A DNA stretch of 39,408 nt from IMG/VR virus record IMGVR_UViG_2917849834_000006, positions 1 through 39,408 of that record. One strand, written 5' to 3'. Position 1 is the first letter of the stretch. Each line of letters starts with the position of its first letter. A program made the translations under genes and the position numbers. The DNA is from a virus (taxonomy: Duplodnaviria > Heunggongvirae > Uroviricota > Caudoviricetes). Positions 1-39,113 of this stretch are shown here, piece by piece. The notes under the pieces were generated by a model, which worked only from the letters and a program-made list of their open reading frames with translations, made no database searches and had not been told where the DNA came from.

Positions 1-90
1 TTGCCTCCCCCCCGTTGATGGGTAAAATAGCCGCAATTTTTCGTTTTCAACAAGCGCGGCGCGATGCCGCTTACTCAAGAAGAAAGAATT

Positions 91-165
91 ATGACGTTGT
101 CTCCTTATTTGCAAGAGGTGGCGAAGCGCCGCACTTTTGCCATTATTTCTCACCCCAATAATTAA
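91..165 (+). pseudogene. prfC: 5' fragment of the peptide chain release factor 3 gene (about 21 native codons) ending in a premature stop where phage DNA begins; marks the left prophage-host junction
   Basis: Translation of 91-165 is [24 protein letters not shown]; residues 1-22 match the RF3 N-terminus as I recall it (…AIISHPDAGKTT…), with divergence at about position 156 followed by AT-rich DNA. Confidence 0.5.
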
Positions 166-319
166 GCCCAAATTAAAGCTCTTTTACTCTTTCAAAGTCC
201 TTTCAGTTAATTGAGTGCTAATCATATAACTCATTTAATAACATGATGTTATGTGGTTTCTTTAATTGAAAATTCTTTCATGTAACTTTAAATCGATCAG
301 CTTGCTTTCATCAAAAATC

Positions 320-376
320 TGTACATGTGCTTGTACATAATGTACAAAACAGCAGAGGTGTTTTTTTATTTGTACA
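320..376. repeat. Cluster of four TGTACA hexamers immediately upstream of int, including the 17-bp palindrome TTGTACATAATGTACAA (331-347)
   Basis: Read directly; TGTACA at 320, 332, 341 and 371; the half-site resembles the immunity-region operators. Confidence 0.6.
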
Positions 377-385
377 AGGTGAGTA

Positions 386-1609
386 ATGGCGCTGTCTGAT
401 GCGTGGTTGCGTTCAGTCGTTGGAAAGGAACGTGATAAGGTTTTGGTTAAATCCGATCGTGATGGTCTGTCTGTCAGAGTATCACCGAAAGGTCGCGTAG
501 TGTTCCAATATCGTTATCAATGGGCAGGGAAAGGTGAGCGCCTTGATATCGGAACTTACCCGGCAACTGGATTAAAAGAGGCCAGAGAAGAGGTTATCCG
601 TCTCCGTGGTGAACTCGAGTCAAACCGCAATCCACGATTAGTCAAGCAGGCTGAAAAACGAAAAGCTACTGAAGCCATGACGGTAGAGTCTGTGATCCGT
701 GCCTGGTATGAAGCATATTGTGTAAAAAATAAAAAAGGTTCTGAACAGATACTCCGCTCGTTTGAGCTGCACCTGTTCTCTAAAATCGGGAATATCCCTC
801 ACGATGCAGCTACATTGCATGATTGGTTAGAAGTCCTGGAGCCTCTTAGCACTAAGACTCCAGCAATAGCAGACCGATTGCTAATTAACGCAAAGCAGGC
901 CCATGTCTGGGCGTATAAGAGAAAGCTCATTGAAACTCGCCCGCTGTCGGATATCACGGGTAAAGATATGGATATCCGTAAAGGTCAGAAGAAACGGTTT
1001 CTGACACATGATGAAATTAAAATCCTTTATGCTGCGATCGATGGTTCTCGAATGGTTCCTAAATACCGGGCCTTCATTAAACTATTGCTGCATTTTGGCT
1101 GCCGTAGTTCAGAGCTAATTACCGCCAGGGTGGACGATTTTGATTTCATTAATAAAGTATGGACTGTACCACCAGAACGACATAAGACTGGGGAGATAAC
1201 AGGCGAACCGCTAAAGCGGCCCATTATTGAACCGGTTGAAGAGCTTATAAAGTACGCTATTTCTATGAACAATGGTTCCGATATGCTTTTTACTAAGGAA
1301 GGAAGCAGGGAACCCGTTGGTCGGACATCATTGCAGTCGCTGCCTTACAATTTAATGCAGTACGCATGGCGGCGTTTGGGGTATCAATTCCCTCATTGGT
1401 CTCTTCATGATTTGAGGCGAACAGCACGAACAAACTTTTCTGATCTTACTGCGCCTCATATTGCAGAAATAATGCTAGGTCATAAACTGCCAGGGGTATG
1501 GCAAGTTTATGACAAGAGCGATTATCTAGAAGAACAGCGTAAAGCCTACCAGGCATGGTGGGAGAGAGTTGAATCGATCGTTACTTGTACTAACTCAGAC
1601 ACCAACTGA
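386..1609 (+). CDS. int: Phage tyrosine integrase (P4-like family)
   Basis: 407-aa ORF with RBS; C-terminal catalytic region HDLRRTARTNF…LGHKLPGVWQVYDKSDY typical of tyrosine recombinases; position next to the host junction. Confidence 0.9.
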   Translation: MALSDAWLRSVVGKERDKVLVKSDRDGLSVRVSPKGRVVFQYRYQWAGKGERLDIGTYPATGLKEAREEVIRLRGELESNRNPRLVKQAEKRKATEAMTVESVIRAWYEAYCVKNKKGSEQILRSFELHLFSKIGNIPHDAATLHDWLEVLEPLSTKTPAIADRLLINAKQAHVWAYKRKLIETRPLSDITGKDMDIRKGQKKRFLTHDEIKILYAAIDGSRMVPKYRAFIKLLLHFGCRSSELITARVDDFDFINKVWTVPPERHKTGEITGEPLKRPIIEPVEELIKYAISMNNGSDMLFTKEGSREPVGRTSLQSLPYNLMQYAWRRLGYQFPHWSLHDLRRTARTNFSDLTAPHIAEIMLGHKLPGVWQVYDKSDYLEEQRKAYQAWWERVESIVTCTNSDTN

Positions 1610-1796
1610 TAGTTCGCTCTGAGCTAGGAACGGATATTCTTATACAAACGGTGTCGCCAGATTGCAGTAAAACTATTGATTGATAAGTGAGCAGACACAG
1701 ATAAGCAGTCAATGAAACCAAAACTTCGCCAGCGATGACATTATCTGCAAGTCCTTTACTACAAACCTCCCATTTAGCTCTAATGTAAGGAATGCT

Positions 1797-2348
1797 ATGC
1801 ACCATCCAATACCCGCACAGTTAGATACGCCTGAAACCCTGAATTTTTGTCTGAAAGTTGTTCCTGATGCTCATGCTGTATTGATTAAAAATGAACCTTT
1901 CTCGGGAGCGGAAGTTATGGACTGCTTTTCGAATGTTGAAATGGTGATTGAACAGAATGGCGGAAGAGCTGTTTACGGTTGGGCTATCTGGCAGGTACCG
2001 GGAGTTTATATTGAAGCTGAGTTCCACTGTATTTGGGAGAATGATGCTGGAGAAATGCTGGATATCACGCCATATCCTTATAGTACGGAAAATATTTTAT
2101 TTCTACCTGATAGTACGCGGATTTATAGGGGGCAGCAGGTAGACAATATCCGCCAGGCTCTTGTAAATGATCCTGATGTGATCAGATGGTTGTATCTTGC
2201 TAGAAAACGTTTTGAAATATTAAATACTGGTGACCTAGCGAACCAGCATGGGCATATTGAATTGCCACCCAAATTAGCCAAAGAGTTTAGCAAAGTTGTC
2301 GATGAGATAGAAAGGCTGTATTCCCGACTAAATCTCCGATATTCATGA
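1797..2348 (+). CDS. Hypothetical protein, low-GC cargo gene between int and xis
   Basis: 183-aa ORF; no recognisable motifs; lower GC than flanking phage genes. Confidence 0.5.
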   Translation: MHHPIPAQLDTPETLNFCLKVVPDAHAVLIKNEPFSGAEVMDCFSNVEMVIEQNGGRAVYGWAIWQVPGVYIEAEFHCIWENDAGEMLDITPYPYSTENILFLPDSTRIYRGQQVDNIRQALVNDPDVIRWLYLARKRFEILNTGDLANQHGHIELPPKLAKEFSKVVDEIERLYSRLNLRYS

Positions 2349-2452
2349 CGAGAGGGTATTGCTATAACCACTGACCATTGAAGATAACGCCTACGGCAGG
2401 CTGTTCGAGTTAGTTGTATTATGGCGGCATATGCCGCCAGTTTTAATCAGTA

Positions 2453-2656
2453 TTAGCACAGCCACGAGGTCATACCTGTAATTACGGCTTTAGTTAATGC
2501 AATTAACTCCTTGTCAGAAAGTTCTTCTAGTTCCTTTCCAGGAAATAGGCCTGGTAACATGTCATTAGCAATATGTTCCAGCTCAATATATTTTCCTAAA
2601 AGTAAGGAGTCTTTGTATAGTTCAATCAGTTCTTCTTTCATCGATAAATCCCTCAT
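2453..2656 (-). CDS. Small hypothetical protein (67 aa), convergent with the upstream cargo ORF
   Basis: ORF only; acidic helical composition. Confidence 0.35.
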   Translation of the reverse strand: MRDLSMKEELIELYKDSLLLGKYIELEHIANDMLPGLFPGKELEELSDKELIALTKAVITGMTSWLC

Positions 2657-2963
2657 TCTACGCTAGAAAAAACAATCAGTTAACGTTATATAACTAGGCG
2701 ATACTCCCAGAATTCAATTCACAATAGTGCGCACTTATTGTGAAAAGTCGGTCGTGATATGTTTTGCAGATTGCCTAAAGTGACAGTATCTTGCAGCGCA
2801 TACATCAAGAATCGCCGCCGGGCGCACCAGCTGACTGACCTGTTCCCCGTTGTTCAAGGATAGCGTTGCATCGACCCGTTGAACTCACAGCATAGCGCAA
2901 GCTGTCAGATTAGGTTTGGCTTTGTGCCATAGATGTGTCAGCTCCCATCTGAGATAATACACG

Positions 2964-3158
2964 TTACTCAATAACTCCAGCAAACCTGTATATCTTGCGT
3001 GATGCCCATTTATTTGGGCAGGATTTAATATCAGGATCTGGAAAATCAGGCCTGTATTTCTGGCCAGTTCTCCTGTTTACGCTATTCCAGCGAAGAACAG
3101 TCGATACTGAAACGCCACAGAATTCGGCAACTTGTTTTGTTGTCATTAAGTTGTTCAT
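2964..3158 (-). CDS. xis: Excisionase / AlpA-like HTH DNA-binding protein
   Basis: 64 aa; TTKQVAEFCGVSVSTVLRW helix-turn-helix typical of AlpA/Xis family; first gene of the leftward operon near int. Confidence 0.7.
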   Translation of the reverse strand: MNNLMTTKQVAEFCGVSVSTVLRWNSVNRRTGQKYRPDFPDPDIKSCPNKWASRKIYRFAGVIE

Positions 3159-3778
3159 TACTTCACCTCCTGCGGCGGCTCCGGTAGCGGTATCCAGTGG
3201 GTTACTTTCGATGCCGGTTCTTCCCCATCGTCAGTAACTGCCCACCATTTGTTTCTCGACCAATCGTAATACCCTTCGAAGGTATCGCACTCAGTCCAGC
3301 CGTAAGACTTACCCCAACACCAAACATACCGTTTATCGTTCGGCATTCGCTCACTACAGCTTATCCAACCATCCGGAATTACCGGAGAGTTGCCCGACAG
3401 CTCGTTCAACTTGTAAGTCTGGCTTACAGGTTCGGCACCATGAATCATGGCGGTGCGGCGGGCGTTCCAGCCTTCATCAAAACCGACTATGCCATTATTT
3501 AAAGACGGACGAGCATCTGGCACCACCGGTACTGGTTTGGCTATATATAGCGGCTGAACATACCAGCCCTTTGATAACCAACTGTCAGCAATGTTTTTAC
3601 TCCTGGTTATTGCCGGAATACCTAAGCCATTGTCTGAATGCAGCCATGCCACCGGATCCTCTTCCAGCGATGCCAGAGCAATTTCATAAGCACGGCGCTC
3701 AATATCGTCTCGAACCTCTAGGCTGCTGATTCGTTCTTTGATTTCTTTAATCAGTTCTTTATTGGTAAATGTGGTCAT
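3158..3778 (-). CDS. DUF551-like phage early protein
   Basis: 206 aa; C-terminal W/C-rich segment ending THWIPLPEPP characteristic of DUF551. Confidence 0.55.
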   Translation of the reverse strand: MTTFTNKELIKEIKERISSLEVRDDIERRAYEIALASLEEDPVAWLHSDNGLGIPAITRSKNIADSWLSKGWYVQPLYIAKPVPVVPDARPSLNNGIVGFDEGWNARRTAMIHGAEPVSQTYKLNELSGNSPVIPDGWISCSERMPNDKRYVWCWGKSYGWTECDTFEGYYDWSRNKWWAVTDDGEEPASKVTHWIPLPEPPQEVK

Positions 3779-4139
3779 TATGCTCAGCCTCCGGCGCTTT
3801 TGGCATTACTGCCCAGTGAGTGATATTGACGTTTTCAAGGTCCCCGACCTGAAATGTCCACTGCCATTCTCCGGTTTCTTTTTGCCCCCATGTGTACCAG
3901 AGAGAACGCCAGCCAATCAGCCAGCCTTCTCCGTTAGCATCAAATAACAGAACACTTTCATTTGCTGGTGGCAGTTCAGCTGACACTGGTATTATTTTGT
4001 TTTCCAGTGCCGCACATTTAGCTTCAAGCGCGTCGAATTTACGTACCAGGTACTCAGCATTTGTTTCGTTCACTTTCAGATCTCGCGGTACACATCTCCC
4101 ACGAAGAAACCCTTCCATTTCGAAAACATTCATGCGCAT
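3759..4139 (-). CDS. Hypothetical phage early protein (DUF551-like C-terminus)
   Basis: 126 aa; W-rich C-terminus …ITHWAVMPKAPE; overlapping, coupled with neighbours. Confidence 0.5.
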   Translation of the reverse strand: MRMNVFEMEGFLRGRCVPRDLKVNETNAEYLVRKFDALEAKCAALENKIIPVSAELPPANESVLLFDANGEGWLIGWRSLWYTWGQKETGEWQWTFQVGDLENVNITHWAVMPKAPEAEHNDHIYQ

Positions 4140-4666
4140 TTGCGTAACTCCGATAACTCGTTAAAACGTTCCATAAACATCCCGTAGGCATGGTCCGGTG
4201 CCAGTGGAATCACTTTGAACATATCTGTTGCCGGGATACCTTCCAGTACAGGCCAGAAAGAGCCATCATCAAGCCCGAGATCGCGGCGTTCGGTTGCCAG
4301 CATAATGAGATCGGCATATTTCACTGGCGTGCTCATAACCGGAGGTAACCCGTATTTCTCACGGATTACGGCGTCTATTTTTTCTTCCATCCGTTTATAG
4401 TCAGGAAGAAGGCGTTTCAGTGGTGCGGGGATGTCCTGGCAATACGCTTCTGTTGCATCATGCATTAACGCTTCAAAAGCAAATTCCTGATGCACCAGCT
4501 GGCTGCAAAGCACCGCATGTTGGGCGACGCTGTAGAAGTGAGAAAGATGACCGGCAAAGCGGCAGATATTTGAAAGGGAAACCGCGATATCGTTAATAAC
4601 GATGTCGTCTTTATTTATCTTGTCATAATAAAAATGCTTCCCGGAAAAAGTTTTAATAAATGACAT
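4130..4666 (-). CDS. HD-domain phosphohydrolase-like protein
   Basis: H…HD motif (AQHAVL…LMHDATEAY); likely start is the internal ATG at 4666 preceded by GGAG, rather than the track start at 4729. Confidence 0.6.
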   Translation of the reverse strand: MSFIKTFSGKHFYYDKINKDDIVINDIAVSLSNICRFAGHLSHFYSVAQHAVLCSQLVHQEFAFEALMHDATEAYCQDIPAPLKRLLPDYKRMEEKIDAVIREKYGLPPVMSTPVKYADLIMLATERRDLGLDDGSFWPVLEGIPATDMFKVIPLAPDHAYGMFMERFNELSELRKCA

Positions 4667-5337
4667 TTCGTTCTCCACTTTATATGCGCTGCACCGCGCT
4701 GAATTTTGGGAAAAGGAAGCCCTCACCATCCGGCGATTATTGAGTCAATTACGTTTCAATAGATGCCCCAGCAGGGGCGGTTAGTTTCTCCACAAAACAG
4801 AGAAGAACACCTGCGGTGACAGCCGCCCGGATGGATTGGGTTATGAGCCCGTCGTCCGGTGATGCTCTTCTCTGTTTTGTAAAAAGAGCGGTACCAGCCG
4901 GAAGCAATGGTACAAACTGATACCGCCAAGGCAGTGGCTGTTGTGGCGGGGTTGTCACTCAGGCGTATGGTCAGCCTGACAACCCGGTGTCCTCAACGGG
5001 GAAAGAGTAACCCCGCCATACTTACCGCCGCGCCATTTCGCGGATTACCACAACGCTGAGAGCACTTAGCCAGTTCGGCGCCACACTTTGTCTCGGCTCC
5101 ATAAATGCTCTTATCGTTGCACCCTGGTCTCTTCCCAGGCGTCAAACCGAATCGCCACGCTGGTTAGGCGTCTTATCAGCATCATCATTGACTTGCACAT
5201 TCCGGCTACCTGGTTTGTTTGCCCGAGCAAGGAGTGGATTGTCCCCTTTAACGTCTCCAGACCGCTAACGACGCATGTGCCATACGCCGTGTTACAACCA
5301 AACTTTGTTTGAATCTTGCCTGTTGCATGTTTCTTTT

Positions 5338-5371
5338 GGATACATTATGTATCCCAAGGGTACATTGTCAA
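5338..5371 (-). promoter_or_regulatory. Candidate leftward early promoter (PL-like) with overlapping operators
   Basis: Minus strand TTGACA (5371-5366), 16-nt spacer, CATAAT (5349-5344); 17-bp palindrome GGATACATTATGTATCC (5338-5354) and operator-like site TGTATCCCAAGGGTACA (5348-5364). Confidence 0.45.
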
Positions 5372-5398
5372 GTATAAAAAAACCTGCCGAAGCAGGTT
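5372..5398 (-). terminator. Rho-independent terminator downstream of the cI-like gene
   Basis: Minus-strand hairpin AACCTGC-ttcg-GCAGGTT followed by a T7 run, 13 nt after the cI stop. Confidence 0.6.
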
Positions 5399-5410
5399 CA
5401 TAAATATTGA

Positions 5411-6085
5411 TTAGGTCTTTATTTTGTATCTTCTTGGTTTTCCCGAGAAAATCACTGTACCAATTATAGAGCAATTACCGTTGATCTTAATGTAAGGTTC
5501 AGGCCAGTTTGGGTTTAATGCTTTGAGGTAACGCTGTGTTCCATCTTCTATCAACCGCTTGAAGGTGGTTTCGCCTGTATCGTGCATCAATGCAATAACG
5601 TCGTCACCGTGGCAGGCAGGGACTTCAGGATCAACAAAAATCATGTCTCCTGGGCGGTACTCATCAATCATTGAATCACCAATCACCCGCAAGATATAAG
5701 TCATTTCACCACAGGGTACAGGGCAGGGATAAGTTTCTGCTGTGCTCAAATCAACCTCAGAATAACCAACTTCTTTCCATGCTCCGGCCTGTACCCATGA
5801 TATGACAGGGACTAACGTTATTTGTTTGTTAGTGATTGAAACATCAGGTTTTTTTGTGATGTTCGTTGTCTGGTGTTCTTGATCAAGCCATCCGACAGGC
5901 AGGTCGAAACATTTTTCGATGTGCCGTGCCATGCTGTCACCGATATTTTTAGTTGCACCATCTCCCATAAACCTGCTGGTCTGGGTTGGCTCGCGATCAA
6001 TCATGGTGGCAAAGGAAGAATTCCCGCCAACACCATCTCTCAGTTTTCTGGCGTTAGACCGCCGGATGTCATGGACTGTTTTCAT
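5411..6085 (-). CDS. cI-like repressor with C-terminal S24 (LexA-like) autopeptidase domain
   Basis: 224 aa; N-terminal HTH region and C-terminal VIGDSMIDEYRPGDMIFVDPE S24 signature; divergent from the cro-like gene. Confidence 0.85.
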   Translation of the reverse strand: MKTVHDIRRSNARKLRDGVGGNSSFATMIDREPTQTSRFMGDGATKNIGDSMARHIEKCFDLPVGWLDQEHQTTNITKKPDVSITNKQITLVPVISWVQAGAWKEVGYSEVDLSTAETYPCPVPCGEMTYILRVIGDSMIDEYRPGDMIFVDPEVPACHGDDVIALMHDTGETTFKRLIEDGTQRYLKALNPNWPEPYIKINGNCSIIGTVIFSGKPRRYKIKT

Positions 6086-6100
6086 AATGAAATTAAAACC

Positions 6101-6169
6101 CTTGTACCGTTAAGGTACAAGTATCTTGAAGGTTCATTTTAATCATGTAATATGTACATCGGAGGTACA
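6101..6169. promoter_or_regulatory. OR-like operator/promoter region with two 17-bp operators (TGTACC-N5-GGTACA at 6103-6119; TGTACA-N5-GGTACA at 6153-6169)
   Basis: Perfect palindrome CTTGTACCGTTAAGGTACAAG at 6101-6121; second near-identical site overlapping the cro RBS; candidate rightward promoter TTGAAG (6126-6131), 16 nt, TAATAT (6148-6153). Confidence 0.6.
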
Positions 6170-6175
6170 TATTGT

Positions 6176-6376
6176 ATGAAAGCGTATTGGGACTCTTTAA
6201 CCAAAGAACAGCAGGGCGAGTTGGCCGGAAAAGTTGGCTCAACACCAGGCTACTTACGGCTGGTTTTCAATGGTTATAAAAAAGCCAGTTTTGTGCTGGC
6301 TAAAAAAATTGAGCAATGCACGTCAGGTGCAATTACGAAATCTGACTTAAGACCGGATATCTATCCGAAAGATTAA
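6176..6376 (+). CDS. Cro-like / YdaS-like HTH regulator
   Basis: Small basic protein divergent from cI; likely start is the ATG at 6176 after GGAGG, rather than the track start at 6152. Confidence 0.65.
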   Translation: MKAYWDSLTKEQQGELAGKVGSTPGYLRLVFNGYKKASFVLAKKIEQCTSGAITKSDLRPDIYPKD

Positions 6377-34467: not shown

Positions 34468-36531
34468 GTGAATATGGCAGTACAGATTTCAGGTGTGCTG
34501 AAAGACGGTGCAGGAAAACCGATACAGAACTGCACCATTCAGCTCAAAGCAAAACGTAACAGCACCACAGTTGTGGTGAACACGGTGGCCTCAGAAAATC
34601 CGGATGAAGCCGGACGTTACAGCATGGATGTTGAGTATGGCCAGTACAGCGTCGCCCTGCTGGTTGAAGGTTTTCCGCCTTCACATGCCGGGACCATCAC
34701 CGTGTATGAGGATTCTAAGCCGGGGACATTGAATGATTTTCTGGGCGCTGCAACAGAAGATGATGTTCGTCCGGAGGCACTGTATCGTTTTGAAAAGATG
34801 GTGGAAGAGGCGGCACGCAACGCTGAAGCCGCCTCTCAGAGCGCAGCGGCAGCAAAGAAATCAGAAACAGCAGCGGCATCGTCCAGGAACGCGGCGAAAA
34901 CATCAGAGACGAATGCAGGTAACAGCGCGAAAGCGGCAGCTTCTTCAAAAACAGCCGCACAAAATGCAGCAACAGCGGCAGAACGTTCAGAGACAAATGC
35001 CCGTGCGTCAGAGGAAGCCTCCGCAGACAGTGAAGAGGCTTCCCGCCGTAATGCAGAGTCAGCCGCTGAGAATGCCGGAATCGCCACCACAAAAGCGCGG
35101 GAGGCCGCAGCAGACGCAACAAAGGCCGGGCAGAAAAAGGATGAGGCTCTGTCGGCAGCGACACGAGCTGAAAAGGCGGCAGACCGCGCAGAAGCCGCAG
35201 CGGAAGTGACTGCAGAGCCCTATGCGAATATAGTGCCGCCGCTGCCTGATGTGTGGATACCGTTTAACGATTCACTGGATATGATTACGGGGTTTTCGCC
35301 ATCATATAAAAAGATTGTTATTGGTGACGATGAAATAACAGTGCCAGGCGACAAGATTGTTAAGTTTAAACGAGCTTCAACAGCAACATATATCAATAAG
35401 TCAGGCTCGTTTGTTGTGGCAGATGTTGATGAAGCCAGATTTGAAAAGTCTGGTTTACTGATAGAAGGGCAACGTACTAATAATTTCATTAACAGTAATG
35501 CACCAGAAGCATGGAACTTTAATAATAAACGTCTTGATGTAAACAGTAATCTCGATCCATTTGGATTCAGCTATGGTGTTCTGACGTATAAAGATTCATC
35601 TGATACCGGGCCTGTGACGCTCATTTCAACAGGAACAGGTCGGGTTATCTCTGTGGAAAATGGTGACTCTGTTACAATTTCTGCCCGATTCAAGGGAAAC
35701 GGAATCAGGGCGAGAATGCGCATATCGAAGCTGAATGATGATGGCGCAGGGAATACTTTTATAGCAGATGCGCTTCTGGATTTGAGCAATCTGACATTAA
35801 AAAGTGATGTGCTTTCGTCATCTTTCGTAGTGGAAAACAGCGGATGGATATTCTTTCAGTCAACCTATAAATCTGATTCATCACAAAATATATATGCCCG
35901 AATAGAAATGTATCAACAGGAAGGCAATGAAATTAAGGTCGGTGACAGTATATCAATGGCAACGCCTCAGGTTGAGAAAGGAACTGCTGCATCATCATTC
36001 ATCATAACAGGGGGAACACCGGCAACGCGAGCCAGTGATATTGTGACAATCCCATTAAATAAAAACTGGGTGCGAAGGCCACTGACAGTACTGACAGAGT
36101 GCAGTGTCTCATGGGACGTTATGCCAAATACCACGGGCGCAGCAAGGATATTAAATATTTCCACTACGGGAGACTCAACAGATATAGCTGACCAGAGTTA
36201 TATGTATCTTGGTTTTATCTCAAAGGGCTCAAAAGCAATCATCACGAATGGAAAGGGAACTATGGCAGAGATAAAAAGTGACATTGCTGTTTCAGGGCGA
36301 AAAAACATTATTGGCGGAAGGTTTAAAGAAGACGGGAGTCTGTCTGTAGTGGTAAATGGAAATATCGGTGGTGCATCGGTTTCGCCTTATAATGATACAA
36401 GATATCTTAATGGTTTCATGAATATAGGGGGGCAATCCTCCACCGGAGACAGGCATTTATTTGGACATGTCAGAAATCTGCGAATCTGGCACAGGGAATT
36501 GAATGACAGGCAATTAAAAGAGGCCGTATGA
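34468..36531 (+). CDS. stf: Side tail fibre protein, chimeric (lambda Stf-like N-terminus, divergent low-GC C-terminal domain)
   Basis: N-terminus MAVQISGVLKDGAGKPIQNCTIQLKAKRNSTTVVVNTV… resembles lambda Stf; Ala-rich coiled-coil middle; C-terminal ~400 aa unrelated and lower GC. Confidence 0.85.
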   Translation: MNMAVQISGVLKDGAGKPIQNCTIQLKAKRNSTTVVVNTVASENPDEAGRYSMDVEYGQYSVALLVEGFPPSHAGTITVYEDSKPGTLNDFLGAATEDDVRPEALYRFEKMVEEAARNAEAASQSAAAAKKSETAAASSRNAAKTSETNAGNSAKAAASSKTAAQNAATAAERSETNARASEEASADSEEASRRNAESAAENAGIATTKAREAAADATKAGQKKDEALSAATRAEKAADRAEAAAEVTAEPYANIVPPLPDVWIPFNDSLDMITGFSPSYKKIVIGDDEITVPGDKIVKFKRASTATYINKSGSFVVADVDEARFEKSGLLIEGQRTNNFINSNAPEAWNFNNKRLDVNSNLDPFGFSYGVLTYKDSSDTGPVTLISTGTGRVISVENGDSVTISARFKGNGIRARMRISKLNDDGAGNTFIADALLDLSNLTLKSDVLSSSFVVENSGWIFFQSTYKSDSSQNIYARIEMYQQEGNEIKVGDSISMATPQVEKGTAASSFIITGGTPATRASDIVTIPLNKNWVRRPLTVLTECSVSWDVMPNTTGAARILNISTTGDSTDIADQSYMYLGFISKGSKAIITNGKGTMAEIKSDIAVSGRKNIIGGRFKEDGSLSVVVNGNIGGASVSPYNDTRYLNGFMNIGGQSSTGDRHLFGHVRNLRIWHRELNDRQLKEAV

Positions 36532-37213: not shown

Positions 37214-38590
37214 CTATGATATTCCTGAAATATCCTCTTCAAGTTCTTTTACTGATTTCGCAATTTTAAATTTAAATTTCCTCTCTATTTCACTATTGCT
37301 AAGTTTTTTTTCCTTCTCTTTCCCTATCCACATAGAAACAAGTTCTCGTTTCTGAGATATATGTAGATTGTCAAAGTTAGGTATGTATTTAAAAGTCTCC
37401 GCTCTACCTCTGCGGAGTTCATAGAAAGTTTTAATCAAAGACTTTGGTTTTATTTCTGATAAAAGGCCGAATCGGCGGATAAGATTATTGATAGTATGAT
37501 TAACAGAGCGAAGTTGAGCTGTTGAGGTTATTTGTGAGAAGTACGATACCCATCCCAATCGTTTACCTTCAAACACACATCCCGTAATTCTGAGATTTAG
37601 TTTCCACTGACAATATGCAACAGCTCGTTCTTTATCGCGCTTACTTTTAGCTTGTAGTAGAGCGTGCCTATATGCAGTAAAAATTTTTGCTAAGGATGAC
37701 TCAAATCTAAGAATGCTCTCATGTTTTATCAATAATTCTCGATTTTCTATGTGGTATCCCAAAAAGTTAAAACTTTCATCCAAGCTGCCTACTTTGGATT
37801 TTGAGTTCTCTTCATTTAATGGATGTGGGTTTAAATTTAATGATTGAAGCTTATCAATGATATGAGATGTTATTTTTGTTGCTTGATATTTGGGCGTTAA
37901 AATAAGAATGTCATCAACGTATCGCATGTACCATATGCCATGCATTTTATTGATTTCATCATCGAAATTAGATAGTGATATTTCAGCTAAAATGTTTGAT
38001 ATCGCTAATCCCTGAGGTACTCCTCTGGTATTATTAGGGATACCTTTGCTTCCTGTACTTCCACTTACAGTAGGTACGATTAATGATGATGTTATTAACT
38101 GTCTAATTTCTTTTTTTCTAATCTTATTTTTTATTGCATTAAATATCAATTTATGTTCAATTGAAGGATAGAAACTTTTAAGATCTATTTTTGCATATTC
38201 AGCATATAGACTGCAGTTTAATGCTTCTTTCAATGAGTCAATTACTGTATGTGGTAGTTTTAATCTGGAATTAGGATATATTTCCGTAAGGCATTCACAG
38301 AGAGCCCTAAGAGTAATTCTGTCCCTAGCAGTTGGTATGGAAATCTGTCTGGGGGTAGAGTTAGCCCCTTTAGATATTAATTTTTCTTTATATGCTGTAA
38401 ATTTATAATTGCCAGAATTAACCTTTTCAAAAATGAAAGTGATCTCATTGTTTATTGTTAAATCAAGTTTTGATGGGCGAATCCGATCTATGCCAATCGC
38501 TCCTGATTCTTTGATTTTTTCAGTGTATACTTTTAGAAGGTTTTTTTTCGAGAATGACTTTTTAAAAATTCTACTTGCAGTCATAGTCAA
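37214..38590 (-). CDS. Reverse transcriptase (prokaryotic defence-type; retron/Abi/DRT-like, family unassigned)
   Basis: RT motifs read in translation: PRQISIPTARDRITLRAL, IDLKSFYPSI, GVPQGLAISNILAEI, WYMRYVDDILIL (YVDD catalytic box), FLGYHI; C-terminal extension of about 150 aa; about 30% GC; track start is TTG, an ATG lies at 38584. Confidence 0.9.
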   Translation of the reverse strand: MTMTASRIFKKSFSKKNLLKVYTEKIKESGAIGIDRIRPSKLDLTINNEITFIFEKVNSGNYKFTAYKEKLISKGANSTPRQISIPTARDRITLRALCECLTEIYPNSRLKLPHTVIDSLKEALNCSLYAEYAKIDLKSFYPSIEHKLIFNAIKNKIRKKEIRQLITSSLIVPTVSGSTGSKGIPNNTRGVPQGLAISNILAEISLSNFDDEINKMHGIWYMRYVDDILILTPKYQATKITSHIIDKLQSLNLNPHPLNEENSKSKVGSLDESFNFLGYHIENRELLIKHESILRFESSLAKIFTAYRHALLQAKSKRDKERAVAYCQWKLNLRITGCVFEGKRLGWVSYFSQITSTAQLRSVNHTINNLIRRFGLLSEIKPKSLIKTFYELRRGRAETFKYIPNFDNLHISQKRELVSMWIGKEKEKKLSNSEIERKFKFKIAKSVKELEEDISGIS

Positions 38591-39113
38591 TCCAAAGATA
38601 TATTAATGGTAGTATATAAAGTGCGGCAGTAATAAATATTCGAAGTAATATCCATAAATTAACAATTATTTTTTCTTTTTGTGTGGGGAGCCTCGTCGTA
38701 AGTCCAACTTGAGTTACCCTTGAAACTTTATCATCTATCTCACGATGATTCTCAACCTCATTGAGCAAATTAAAATATTTTTCTTTCTGTTCAGGAGTTA
38801 ATTGTTGGCCGTTGGTAATGTCAAAATAGAGTCGCTGTAGTGCAATATAATTCCTTCTCATGGCTATTGCTCGACCACGAAAATCTAGGTTAGATACGAT
38901 CAGAGAAATACCTAGTAGAGCCACTGAAAGTATCGCTGCAACGATATCTGTATTATCTCCTAGAACTTTTGGAAATCGTAACGTTACAATTGAAAGCACC
39001 GCACTCAATATAGCATACCAAACGAGGATTAATTGAGAGTGTTTTTCAAGCCATTCTAGTCGATGGTGCGCTTGGATACGGGCTTTATATGTAAACCAAA
39101 TATTGTCATGCAT
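38571..39113 (-). CDS. Small multi-pass membrane protein co-transcribed upstream of the RT (candidate effector)
   Basis: 180 aa; three hydrophobic helices (about residues 27-45, 57-77, 152-176) around a charged middle region; AGGA RBS; ends 8 nt before the RT ATG; same low GC. Confidence 0.7.
   Translation of the reverse strand: MHDNIWFTYKARIQAHHRLEWLEKHSQLILVWYAILSAVLSIVTLRFPKVLGDNTDIVAAILSVALLGISLIVSNLDFRGRAIAMRRNYIALQRLYFDITNGQQLTPEQKEKYFNLLNEVENHREIDDKVSRVTQVGLTTRLPTQKEKIIVNLWILLRIFITAALYILPLIYLWIDYDCK

Follow-up and report, generated by a model that had tools for sequence, protein, structure and literature searches.

The interval between int and xis

The DNA examined here is IMG/VR virus record IMGVR_UViG_2917849834_000006 (Caudoviricetes), positions 1 to 39,408, and this whole stretch of 39,408 nucleotides (nt) is referred to below as the window. 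It holds a lambdoid prophage whose insertion site is the 5' end of prfC. Our subject is the interval between the integrase gene (int) and the excisionase gene (xis) of this prophage, in which lie an open reading frame (ORF) of 183 amino acids (aa), named ORF183 hereafter, a small convergent gene, and a palindrome. The interval is a slot for exchangeable cargo, and ORF183 may be an anti-phage enzyme. An earlier, sequence-only reading of this DNA, made without database searches, had placed the 183-aa ORF and a convergent 67-aa ORF between int and xis, and both are present, at 1797-2348 on the plus strand and 2453-2656 on the minus strand, respectively. The features of the locus are the following:

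386-1609, plus strand: int, tyrosine integrase (Pfam Phage_integrase, Arm-DNA-bind_3 and Phage_int_M); left conserved flank of the slot
1606-1645, plus strand: conserved post-int element CAACTGA(T/C)AGT..GAGC..GGA, from the left boundaries of eight loci compared
ca. 1646 to ca. 2878, no strand: variable cargo cassette filling the int-xis slot
1735-1762, plus strand: promoter-like element of ORF183 (-35 ATGACA at 1735-1740, 16-nt spacer, -10 TACTAC at 1757-1762)
1797-2348, plus strand: ORF183, 183 aa
2422-2439, plus strand: GC-rich hairpin between the convergent ORFs (terminator scan)
2453-2641, minus strand: small gene, most likely 62 aa (the longest ORF, to 2656, has 67 aa)
2718-2744, no strand: palindrome
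2879-2963, minus strand: conserved region downstream of xis; right flank of the slot
2964-3158, minus strand: xis, excisionase (phrog_1553, E 1.3e-35; HTH_17)

The palindrome lies in a part of the interval, about 300 nt long, that holds no credible ORF. With a guanine-plus-cytosine (GC) content of 0.419, the cassette ranks in the lowest 7% of stretches of equal size; int has 0.454 and the window as a whole 0.499. The "AT-rich island" of the sequence-only reading is thus a genuine dip in GC, yet a mild one, and the other end of the prophage is much more AT-rich.

A cargo slot with fixed flanks and interchangeable content

The prfC integrase with its attachment region is found at yjjG/prfC in about 700 of the 5,426 complete Escherichia coli genomes (90 to 99% identity); the slot is sharply bounded and present in ca. 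13% of complete E. coli genomes. Across 12 sister loci the end of int (last 300 bp) is 92 to 100% identical and the region following xis (about 85 bp) 90 to 99% identical, and the 1.1 to 2.3 kb between these flanks are unrelated from locus to locus. In a comparison of the left boundaries of eight loci, the post-int element at 1606-1645 is the final stretch common to the sister prophages, and from there on the cargos differ. On the right the slot is bounded by a hairpin, which in the sister prophages lies directly downstream of xis and has a 10-bp stem (GGCACAGAGC, about 20 nt, GCTCTGTGCC); in the window its left arm is degraded (2879-2963). Placed where the leftward operon ends, the hairpin might act as a terminator or as a sib-like processing site.

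The alternative cargos include several known genes. PADLOC recognized AbiU (E 3.7e-111), the Borvo protein BovA (E 1.3e-241; a split copy in another strain brings this to two loci), and a NucC/PD-DExK-like DUF6602 nuclease. RefSeq names an "anti-phage dCTP deaminase" and a dGTPase-family protein among the others, and one further cargo is an 868-aa HNH endonuclease. The unassigned cargos comprise a 413-aa protein (strain IAI39), two proteins of 150 and 160 aa (RM13514), a 377-aa protein (EC-10), and three genes (ETEC1717). Cargo genes occur in either orientation. A Stx2c-converting phage (LC727888.1), from a medically relevant group, has in its slot a 517-aa ORF on the opposite strand (2044-3597, minus strand, of the extracted locus) that matched nothing in Pfam or PADLOC.

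The int-xis interval is therefore a cargo slot, and it has the two marks of a defence hotspot, namely conserved flanks around interchangeable content and known defence systems among the alternative cargos. That such an interval would be a site for accessory or defence-type genes had been proposed by the sequence-only reading, and the fixed flanks, replaced content, and known anti-phage genes of the sister prophages bear it out. The window cargo itself occurs in four of the 5,426 complete E. coli genomes, with an identical cassette in those four strains, and none of 50,697 phage records matched it by megablast. We found no description of the int-xis slot of prfC prophages in the literature searched. 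Because about half of the sampled slot cargos are recognized immune genes, its remaining cargos, both window genes among them, make promising candidates for anti-phage or counter-defence functions that would be new.

ORF183 as a probable autonomous module

The DNA in common with a Citrobacter islet extends from 1726 to 2438 (87% identity), that is, from 71 nt upstream of the ATG of ORF183 through the terminator hairpin. Between the promoter-like element (1735-1762) and the start codon lies a Shine-Dalgarno sequence, AAGGA, at 1787-1791. The succession of ATGACA, TA(C/T)TA(T/C) 16 to 17 nt further on, and AAGGA is kept in four different genomic contexts. A simple promoter scan did not flag the element, and because of this and the weak -10 hexamer TACTAC we regard the promoter as putative. 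At the other end, the hairpin TGGCGGCATATGCCGCCA at 2422-2439 is followed on the plus strand by GTTTTAATCA, and the fact that the DNA in common with the Citrobacter islet stops there on the 3' side supports a role as terminator. A moron is an autonomous unit of promoter, gene and terminator; ORF183 has a terminator of its own and a deviating base composition (GC 0.418 versus 0.499), together with the putative promoter. ORF183 would be an autonomous moron in this sense, and, equipped with its own promoter-like element, Shine-Dalgarno sequence and terminator, it would be produced in the lysogen independently of the lytic programme of the phage.

Independence of the two genes

ORF183 and the small gene are independent genes and do not form a unit. 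Without the small gene, ORF183 homologues are found in a common Citrobacter islet beside a serine recombinase, in a Dickeya integrative and conjugative element (ICE), in a Pseudomonas P2-like prophage, and in Klebsiella prophage ends, 3' of a Hin-type invertase and a 184-aa protein. A Yersinia islet has the homologue beside a 967-aa SIR2 protein with a ThsA/Dsr1-like N-terminus, and in Mesorhizobium it stands beside DarT/NADAR. Conversely, the small gene is found without ORF183 in Citrobacter, 3' of ogr at the end of a P2-like prophage, in the kdgR-yobH islet of E. coli, and inside an ICE transfer region. In Klebsiella the invertase, the 184-aa protein and the ORF183 homologue constitute a fixed three-gene block (3817-5552 of the extracted loci) with the homologue last. 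Tailspike genes, different from strain to strain, adjoin this block, and int, gtrABC or a porin gene comes after it; the 184-aa protein had no match in Pfam or PADLOC.

The sequence-only reading named a lack of expression and of conservation across related prophages as grounds for abandoning the cargo view. Both ORFs proved to be conserved and under purifying selection: the ratio of nonsynonymous to synonymous substitution rates (dN/dS), compared across different genomic settings, is 0.12 to 0.23 for ORF183 and about 0.10 for the small gene.

One might read ORF183, the small ORF, and the palindrome as one regulated system, either a toxin-antitoxin pair or an effector and regulator with the palindrome as operator, given that the genes are adjacent in a cassette that is identical in four E. 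coli strains and that the palindrome lies upstream of the small gene. The genes are, however, convergent with the terminator between them, and each is found alone elsewhere even at 79 to 90% identity, ORF183 in the Citrobacter islet and the small gene in the P2-like prophage, the kdgR islet and the ICE. BLAST homology of each module ends at its own gene, and the palindrome was recovered in no other context. Among 57 loci from many phyla, no neighbour of ORF183 recurs beyond close relatives as a conserved partner gene would. We reject a two-gene system because each gene occurs alone, no neighbour recurs, and homology stops at each gene; the reading as a single system is largely refuted and very improbable.

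The ORF183 family and its predicted fold

ORF183 is an acidic protein (isoelectric point, pI, 5.0). We collected 104 word-indexed homologues, and the family amounts to at least 3,156 clusters at 50% identity (E <=1e-3), with a patchy distribution that spans phyla: Gamma-, Beta- and Alphaproteobacteria, Acidobacteria, Verrucomicrobia, Clostridia, Fusobacteria, Bacteroidota and Nanoarchaeota. Searches of Pfam, NCBIfam and PADLOC with ORF183 gave no match, nor did the known and candidate defence models of PADLOC-DB 2.0, and the sole family assignment is phrog_37148 (function unassigned). A sequence-profile search of the PDB returned matches at chance level only, and a literature search by protein accessions and PHROG identifier found no papers.

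The AlphaFold 2 (AF2) model of ORF183 has a predicted local distance difference test score (pLDDT) of 93.7. Residues 1-125 form an alpha/beta core, and residues 126-181 a helical hairpin at the C-terminus. Along the chain, a helix at 43-54 is followed by strands at 57-67, 71-81, 87-89, 99-104 and 118-121. Conservation was counted in an alignment of 251 sequences. Three residues stand out: Cys43 (241 of 244), His77 (248 of 250) and Asp89 (235 of 251). In the model Cys43 is the first residue of the helix, His77 is on the second strand after it, and Asp89 on the third. Glu73 and Glu75, on the same strand face as His77, and Asp105, after the fourth strand, are also conserved.

A papain-like core is defined by a cysteine at the N-terminus of a helix, a histidine on strand 2, and a polar residue on strand 3 (PMC10318531). 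ORF183 has this arrangement, and, judging from the AF2 secondary structure only, it also has the core helix followed by an antiparallel sheet of four to five strands that characterizes the papain/transglutaminase-like superfamily (CL0125). ORF183 thus probably works like a thiol enzyme of the papain or transglutaminase type. Significant profile or structure similarity to an accepted member was not obtained, and for this reason we do not file ORF183 as a member of CL0125. The transglutaminase-core motifs C-x-x-aromatic, G-x-x-A-x-Y-x-G-aromatic, H-x-x-W-E and D-x-T resemble CFSN, GGRAVYGW, HCIWE and DITP of ORF183; we use this resemblance as a lead and not as a test. A search for transglutaminase-core proteins with an approximate fragment of yeast PNGase as the query gave no match. 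In Cys43, His77 and Asp89, ORF183 offers a testable trio in a family without a name, Pfam model, or solved structure.

Remote-homology and structure searches, the checks suggested by the sequence-only reading, brought little for ORF183: comparison of the AF2 model to PDB structures gave no significant match, and Foldseek against viral models gave one, to BFVD A0A6J5NTA5 (E 4e-6, template modelling score 0.49, 151 columns, 14% identity). The matched protein, annotated as "GIY-YIG_COG3680 domain" and 384 aa long, comes from an uncultured phage; the model match may reflect the fusion of an ORF183-like domain with a nuclease. We did not adopt ORF183 as a GIY-YIG domain because its order of strands and helices does not fit that domain.

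In some public databases this very protein goes by the name "zinc chelation protein SecC". A SEC-C knuckle (CxC..C[CH]) is present at the C-terminus of 90 of the 251 aligned relatives (36%), and of 14 of 52 in another set. ORF183 of the window lacks the SEC-C motif (PF02810), which only distant relatives carry, and the name is therefore a transferred misnomer that our analysis corrects.

The small gene and the palindrome

The small gene most likely starts at the ATG at 2641 and encodes 62 aa, rather than the 67 aa of the sequence-only reading, which had counted the whole existing ORF. A Shine-Dalgarno sequence, GAGGGA, precedes this ATG by 7 nt, RefSeq places the start there, and most homologues have 62 aa. 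The protein is acidic (pI 4.5) and ends in a conserved tail, ITGMTSW(L/V)C. Its homologues fall into eight clusters (70 to 97% identity). Pfam, PHROG, PADLOC and NCBIfam yielded no family match, the sole match in PADLOC-DB 2.0 was at chance level (E 0.058), and a PDB search likewise returned only chance-level matches. We infer that the 62-aa protein is a second, separate moron.

In the kdgR-yobH islet (4001-6187 of the extracted locus) the homologue of the small gene (84% identity, BLASTP) lies about 500 nt upstream of a gene for 495 aa on the same strand, which had no match in Pfam or PADLOC. It is possible that this gene is a partner of the small gene, in the kdgR-yobH context only.

The palindrome, 77 nt upstream of the ATG at 2641, was reported at 2719-2743 by the sequence-only reading; it is present and slightly larger, TTCACAATA-GTGCGCACT-TATTGTGAA, with perfect 9-nt arms at 2718-2744 and an inner GTGC/GCAC pairing that is offset by one base. 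By chance, 0.3 perfect inverted repeats (8-nt arms, spacer of at most 12 nt) are expected in the region, and two are seen, namely the palindrome and the hairpin at 2422-2439. The 27-nt pattern has a single copy in the window, which rules out a repeated operator, and an unusually stable RNA hairpin is likewise ruled out, as RNA folding of the region is on a par with that of shuffled sequence (z -0.28). A CRP site was rejected on inspection because the half-sites are in the wrong order. Rfam, searched at a permissive threshold with window positions 1500-3300, gave no match. BLAST did not recover the palindrome in other contexts of the small gene, where a MAFFT alignment hints at weak upstream similarity, and a distant DNA search with the non-coding stretch (2657-2878) and the small gene returned only the same four E. 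coli strains. Conservation links the palindrome to neither gene. At most it would be a site ahead of the small gene to which a protein binds, and this is the natural guess.

A proposed role for ORF183

ORF183 would be a compact, stand-alone thiol enzyme, likely a peptidase, deamidase or transglutaminase acting on a protein target. It would covalently modify or cleave a phage or host protein, in the manner of a single-gene abortive-infection enzyme, and in doing so would protect the lysogen against other phages. Protection of the lysogen is the role that we consider most likely because of the content of the slot and the neighbourhoods of the relatives of ORF183; taken alone, this defence role has slightly less than an even chance. 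The identified slot cargos are all immune genes, which leans towards defence. In a scan of 149 neighbours, relatives of ORF183 stand beside Kiwa, MADS, DrmD or HsdS, and other relatives beside a pair of AAA-ATPase and UvrD-helicase; the DarT/NADAR and SIR2 neighbours named above lean the same way. The family is common in bacterial chromosomes, in prophage ends and in ICEs, is found on 53 plasmids, and occurs in three of 50,697 sequenced phage genomes. The best explanation as a whole, in which ORF183 is slot cargo, a moron, a thiol enzyme, and an anti-phage gene, has in our estimate a probability of about 0.5.

Several points weigh against this explanation. Defence genes are a minority of the 149 neighbours scanned, and about half of the sampled sister cargos are without known function. 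The invariant Glu-x-Glu-x-His could be a metal site instead. The GIY-YIG_COG3680 protein (E 4e-6) is the only significant viral structural match, and it is unexplained. The weak -10 hexamer in the window, with no promoter reported by the simple scan, belongs here as well, as do those relatives in conjugative elements that have a long neighbour, read by eye as ParB-like, a setting that suits counter-defence.

In the Rhizobiales loci, for example, relatives of ORF183 have a recurrent long neighbour (169 to 768 aa) and a neighbour of about 400 aa; by eye, and with no annotation by a tool, the former looks ParB-like and both look like genes of transfer leading regions. Together with the presence of the family on conjugative plasmids and ICEs, this would agree with ORF183 or the small acidic protein being a counter-defence gene with which an incoming element disarms the immunity of its host, for instance through cleavage or modification of an immune protein. 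Small size and acidity (pI 5.0 and 4.5) are traits that both proteins have in common with many anti-defence proteins, and papain-type enzymes are common among virulence and effector proteins (PMC10318531). The near absence of the family from phage genomes (three of 50,697) argues the other way, as do the many copies in chromosomal islets without transfer genes. In this prophage lineage, moreover, the slot otherwise holds defence genes and not counter-defence genes, and ORF183 lies outside the early operon that is expressed on entry. We consider counter-defence improbable, if less so than the single regulated system discussed above.

The invariant glutamates bear on another alternative, in which the cargo plays no part in conflict with phages. 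As an enzyme, ORF183 would then serve a housekeeping-type or niche function, possibly with a metal bound by Glu73, Glu75 and His77, or else it would ride along as a selfish passenger; the palindrome would be a chance or structural feature. Against this stand the purifying selection on ORF183 across very different elements, its patchy distribution across phyla, as in horizontally transferred genes, and its repeated occurrence at prophage ends, in ICEs and in defence islets; the identified cargos of the slot, too, are all conflict genes. This alternative is unlikely, though slightly less so than counter-defence.

A wider proposal follows on the preferred anti-phage role. ORF183 might found a large unnamed family of single-gene anti-phage thiol enzymes of the papain/transglutaminase type, often tipped with SEC-C, that halt infection by cutting or modifying proteins; we hold this to be doubtful, and less probable than the defence role of ORF183 itself. 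If true, further genes of this kind could conveniently be sought in the int-xis slot of prfC prophages, with the 62-aa protein and the cargos of 377, 413 and 517 aa as further candidates.

The prophage backbone and its other end

The window starts with the opening codons of prfC, the gene for RF3. In the four E. coli genomes with the same DNA, yjjG is directly upstream, as it is beside prfC in K-12. A copy of the first prfC codons lies in the prophage at 91-161, where RefSeq annotates a 69-nt pseudogene fragment (in window 1-385). The backbone of the window prophage is common to Stx2c-converting phages, for which a 14-bp insertion duplication is listed. From 2964 onwards the leftward genes encode the excisionase, two DUF551 proteins, yfdR and others, and xis closes this leftward early operon as its last gene.

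At the far end of the prophage, 3' of the tail-fibre gene (34468-36531), a region of GC 0.33 to 0.36 (37214-39113, minus strand) contains two genes, one for a reverse transcriptase of 458 aa (PADLOC RT_UG17, E 1.9e-158), the other for a SLATT membrane effector of 180 aa (RTasSLATT, E 1e-56). This pair is a defence-associated reverse-transcriptase (DRT) system, at a second cargo site of the same prophage.

Comparison with known systems

Of the families compared, the papain/transglutaminase-like superfamily (CL0125) resembles ORF183 in its core helix and antiparallel sheet and in the positions of Cys, His and Asp. It includes function-unassigned families that adjoin restriction and PIWI-like genes (DUF2026). 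ORF183 differs from its members by the extra invariant residues Glu73, Glu75 and Asp105 and by the C-terminal helical hairpin, and its family by the SEC-C zinc knuckle in about a third of the relatives. That knuckle is the likeness to SEC-C motif proteins, from which the knuckle-less window protein differs. Rugutis, a lactococcal anti-phage protein of 359 aa with an N-terminal SEC-C motif (PMC11381338), serves as a lead only.

A plausible model of an abortive, stand-alone enzyme is provided by a single prophage-borne gene for a putative peptidase beside an integrase, a likeness that ORF183 has to Lit. The gene for the Lit protease of the e14 prophage is next to int, and its product cleaves EF-Tu on infection by T4. 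Unlike ORF183 with its Cys/His/Asp pattern, Lit belongs to the zinc metalloproteases, and the two have no relation in sequence or fold.

The slot as such compares best with the prophage defence hotspots, such as the variable loci of P2-like phages and P4-like satellites (Rousset et al. 2022, PMC9122126). Unlike the systems of those hotspots, the window cargo matches no known system. In both cases conserved phage genes flank interchangeable cargo, with many single-gene anti-phage systems, and the GC content of the cargo is below that of its surroundings. In contrast to the P2 and P4 hotspots, the slot described here lies between divergently placed int and xis genes, in a lambdoid prfC prophage that shares its backbone with the Stx2c-converting phages.

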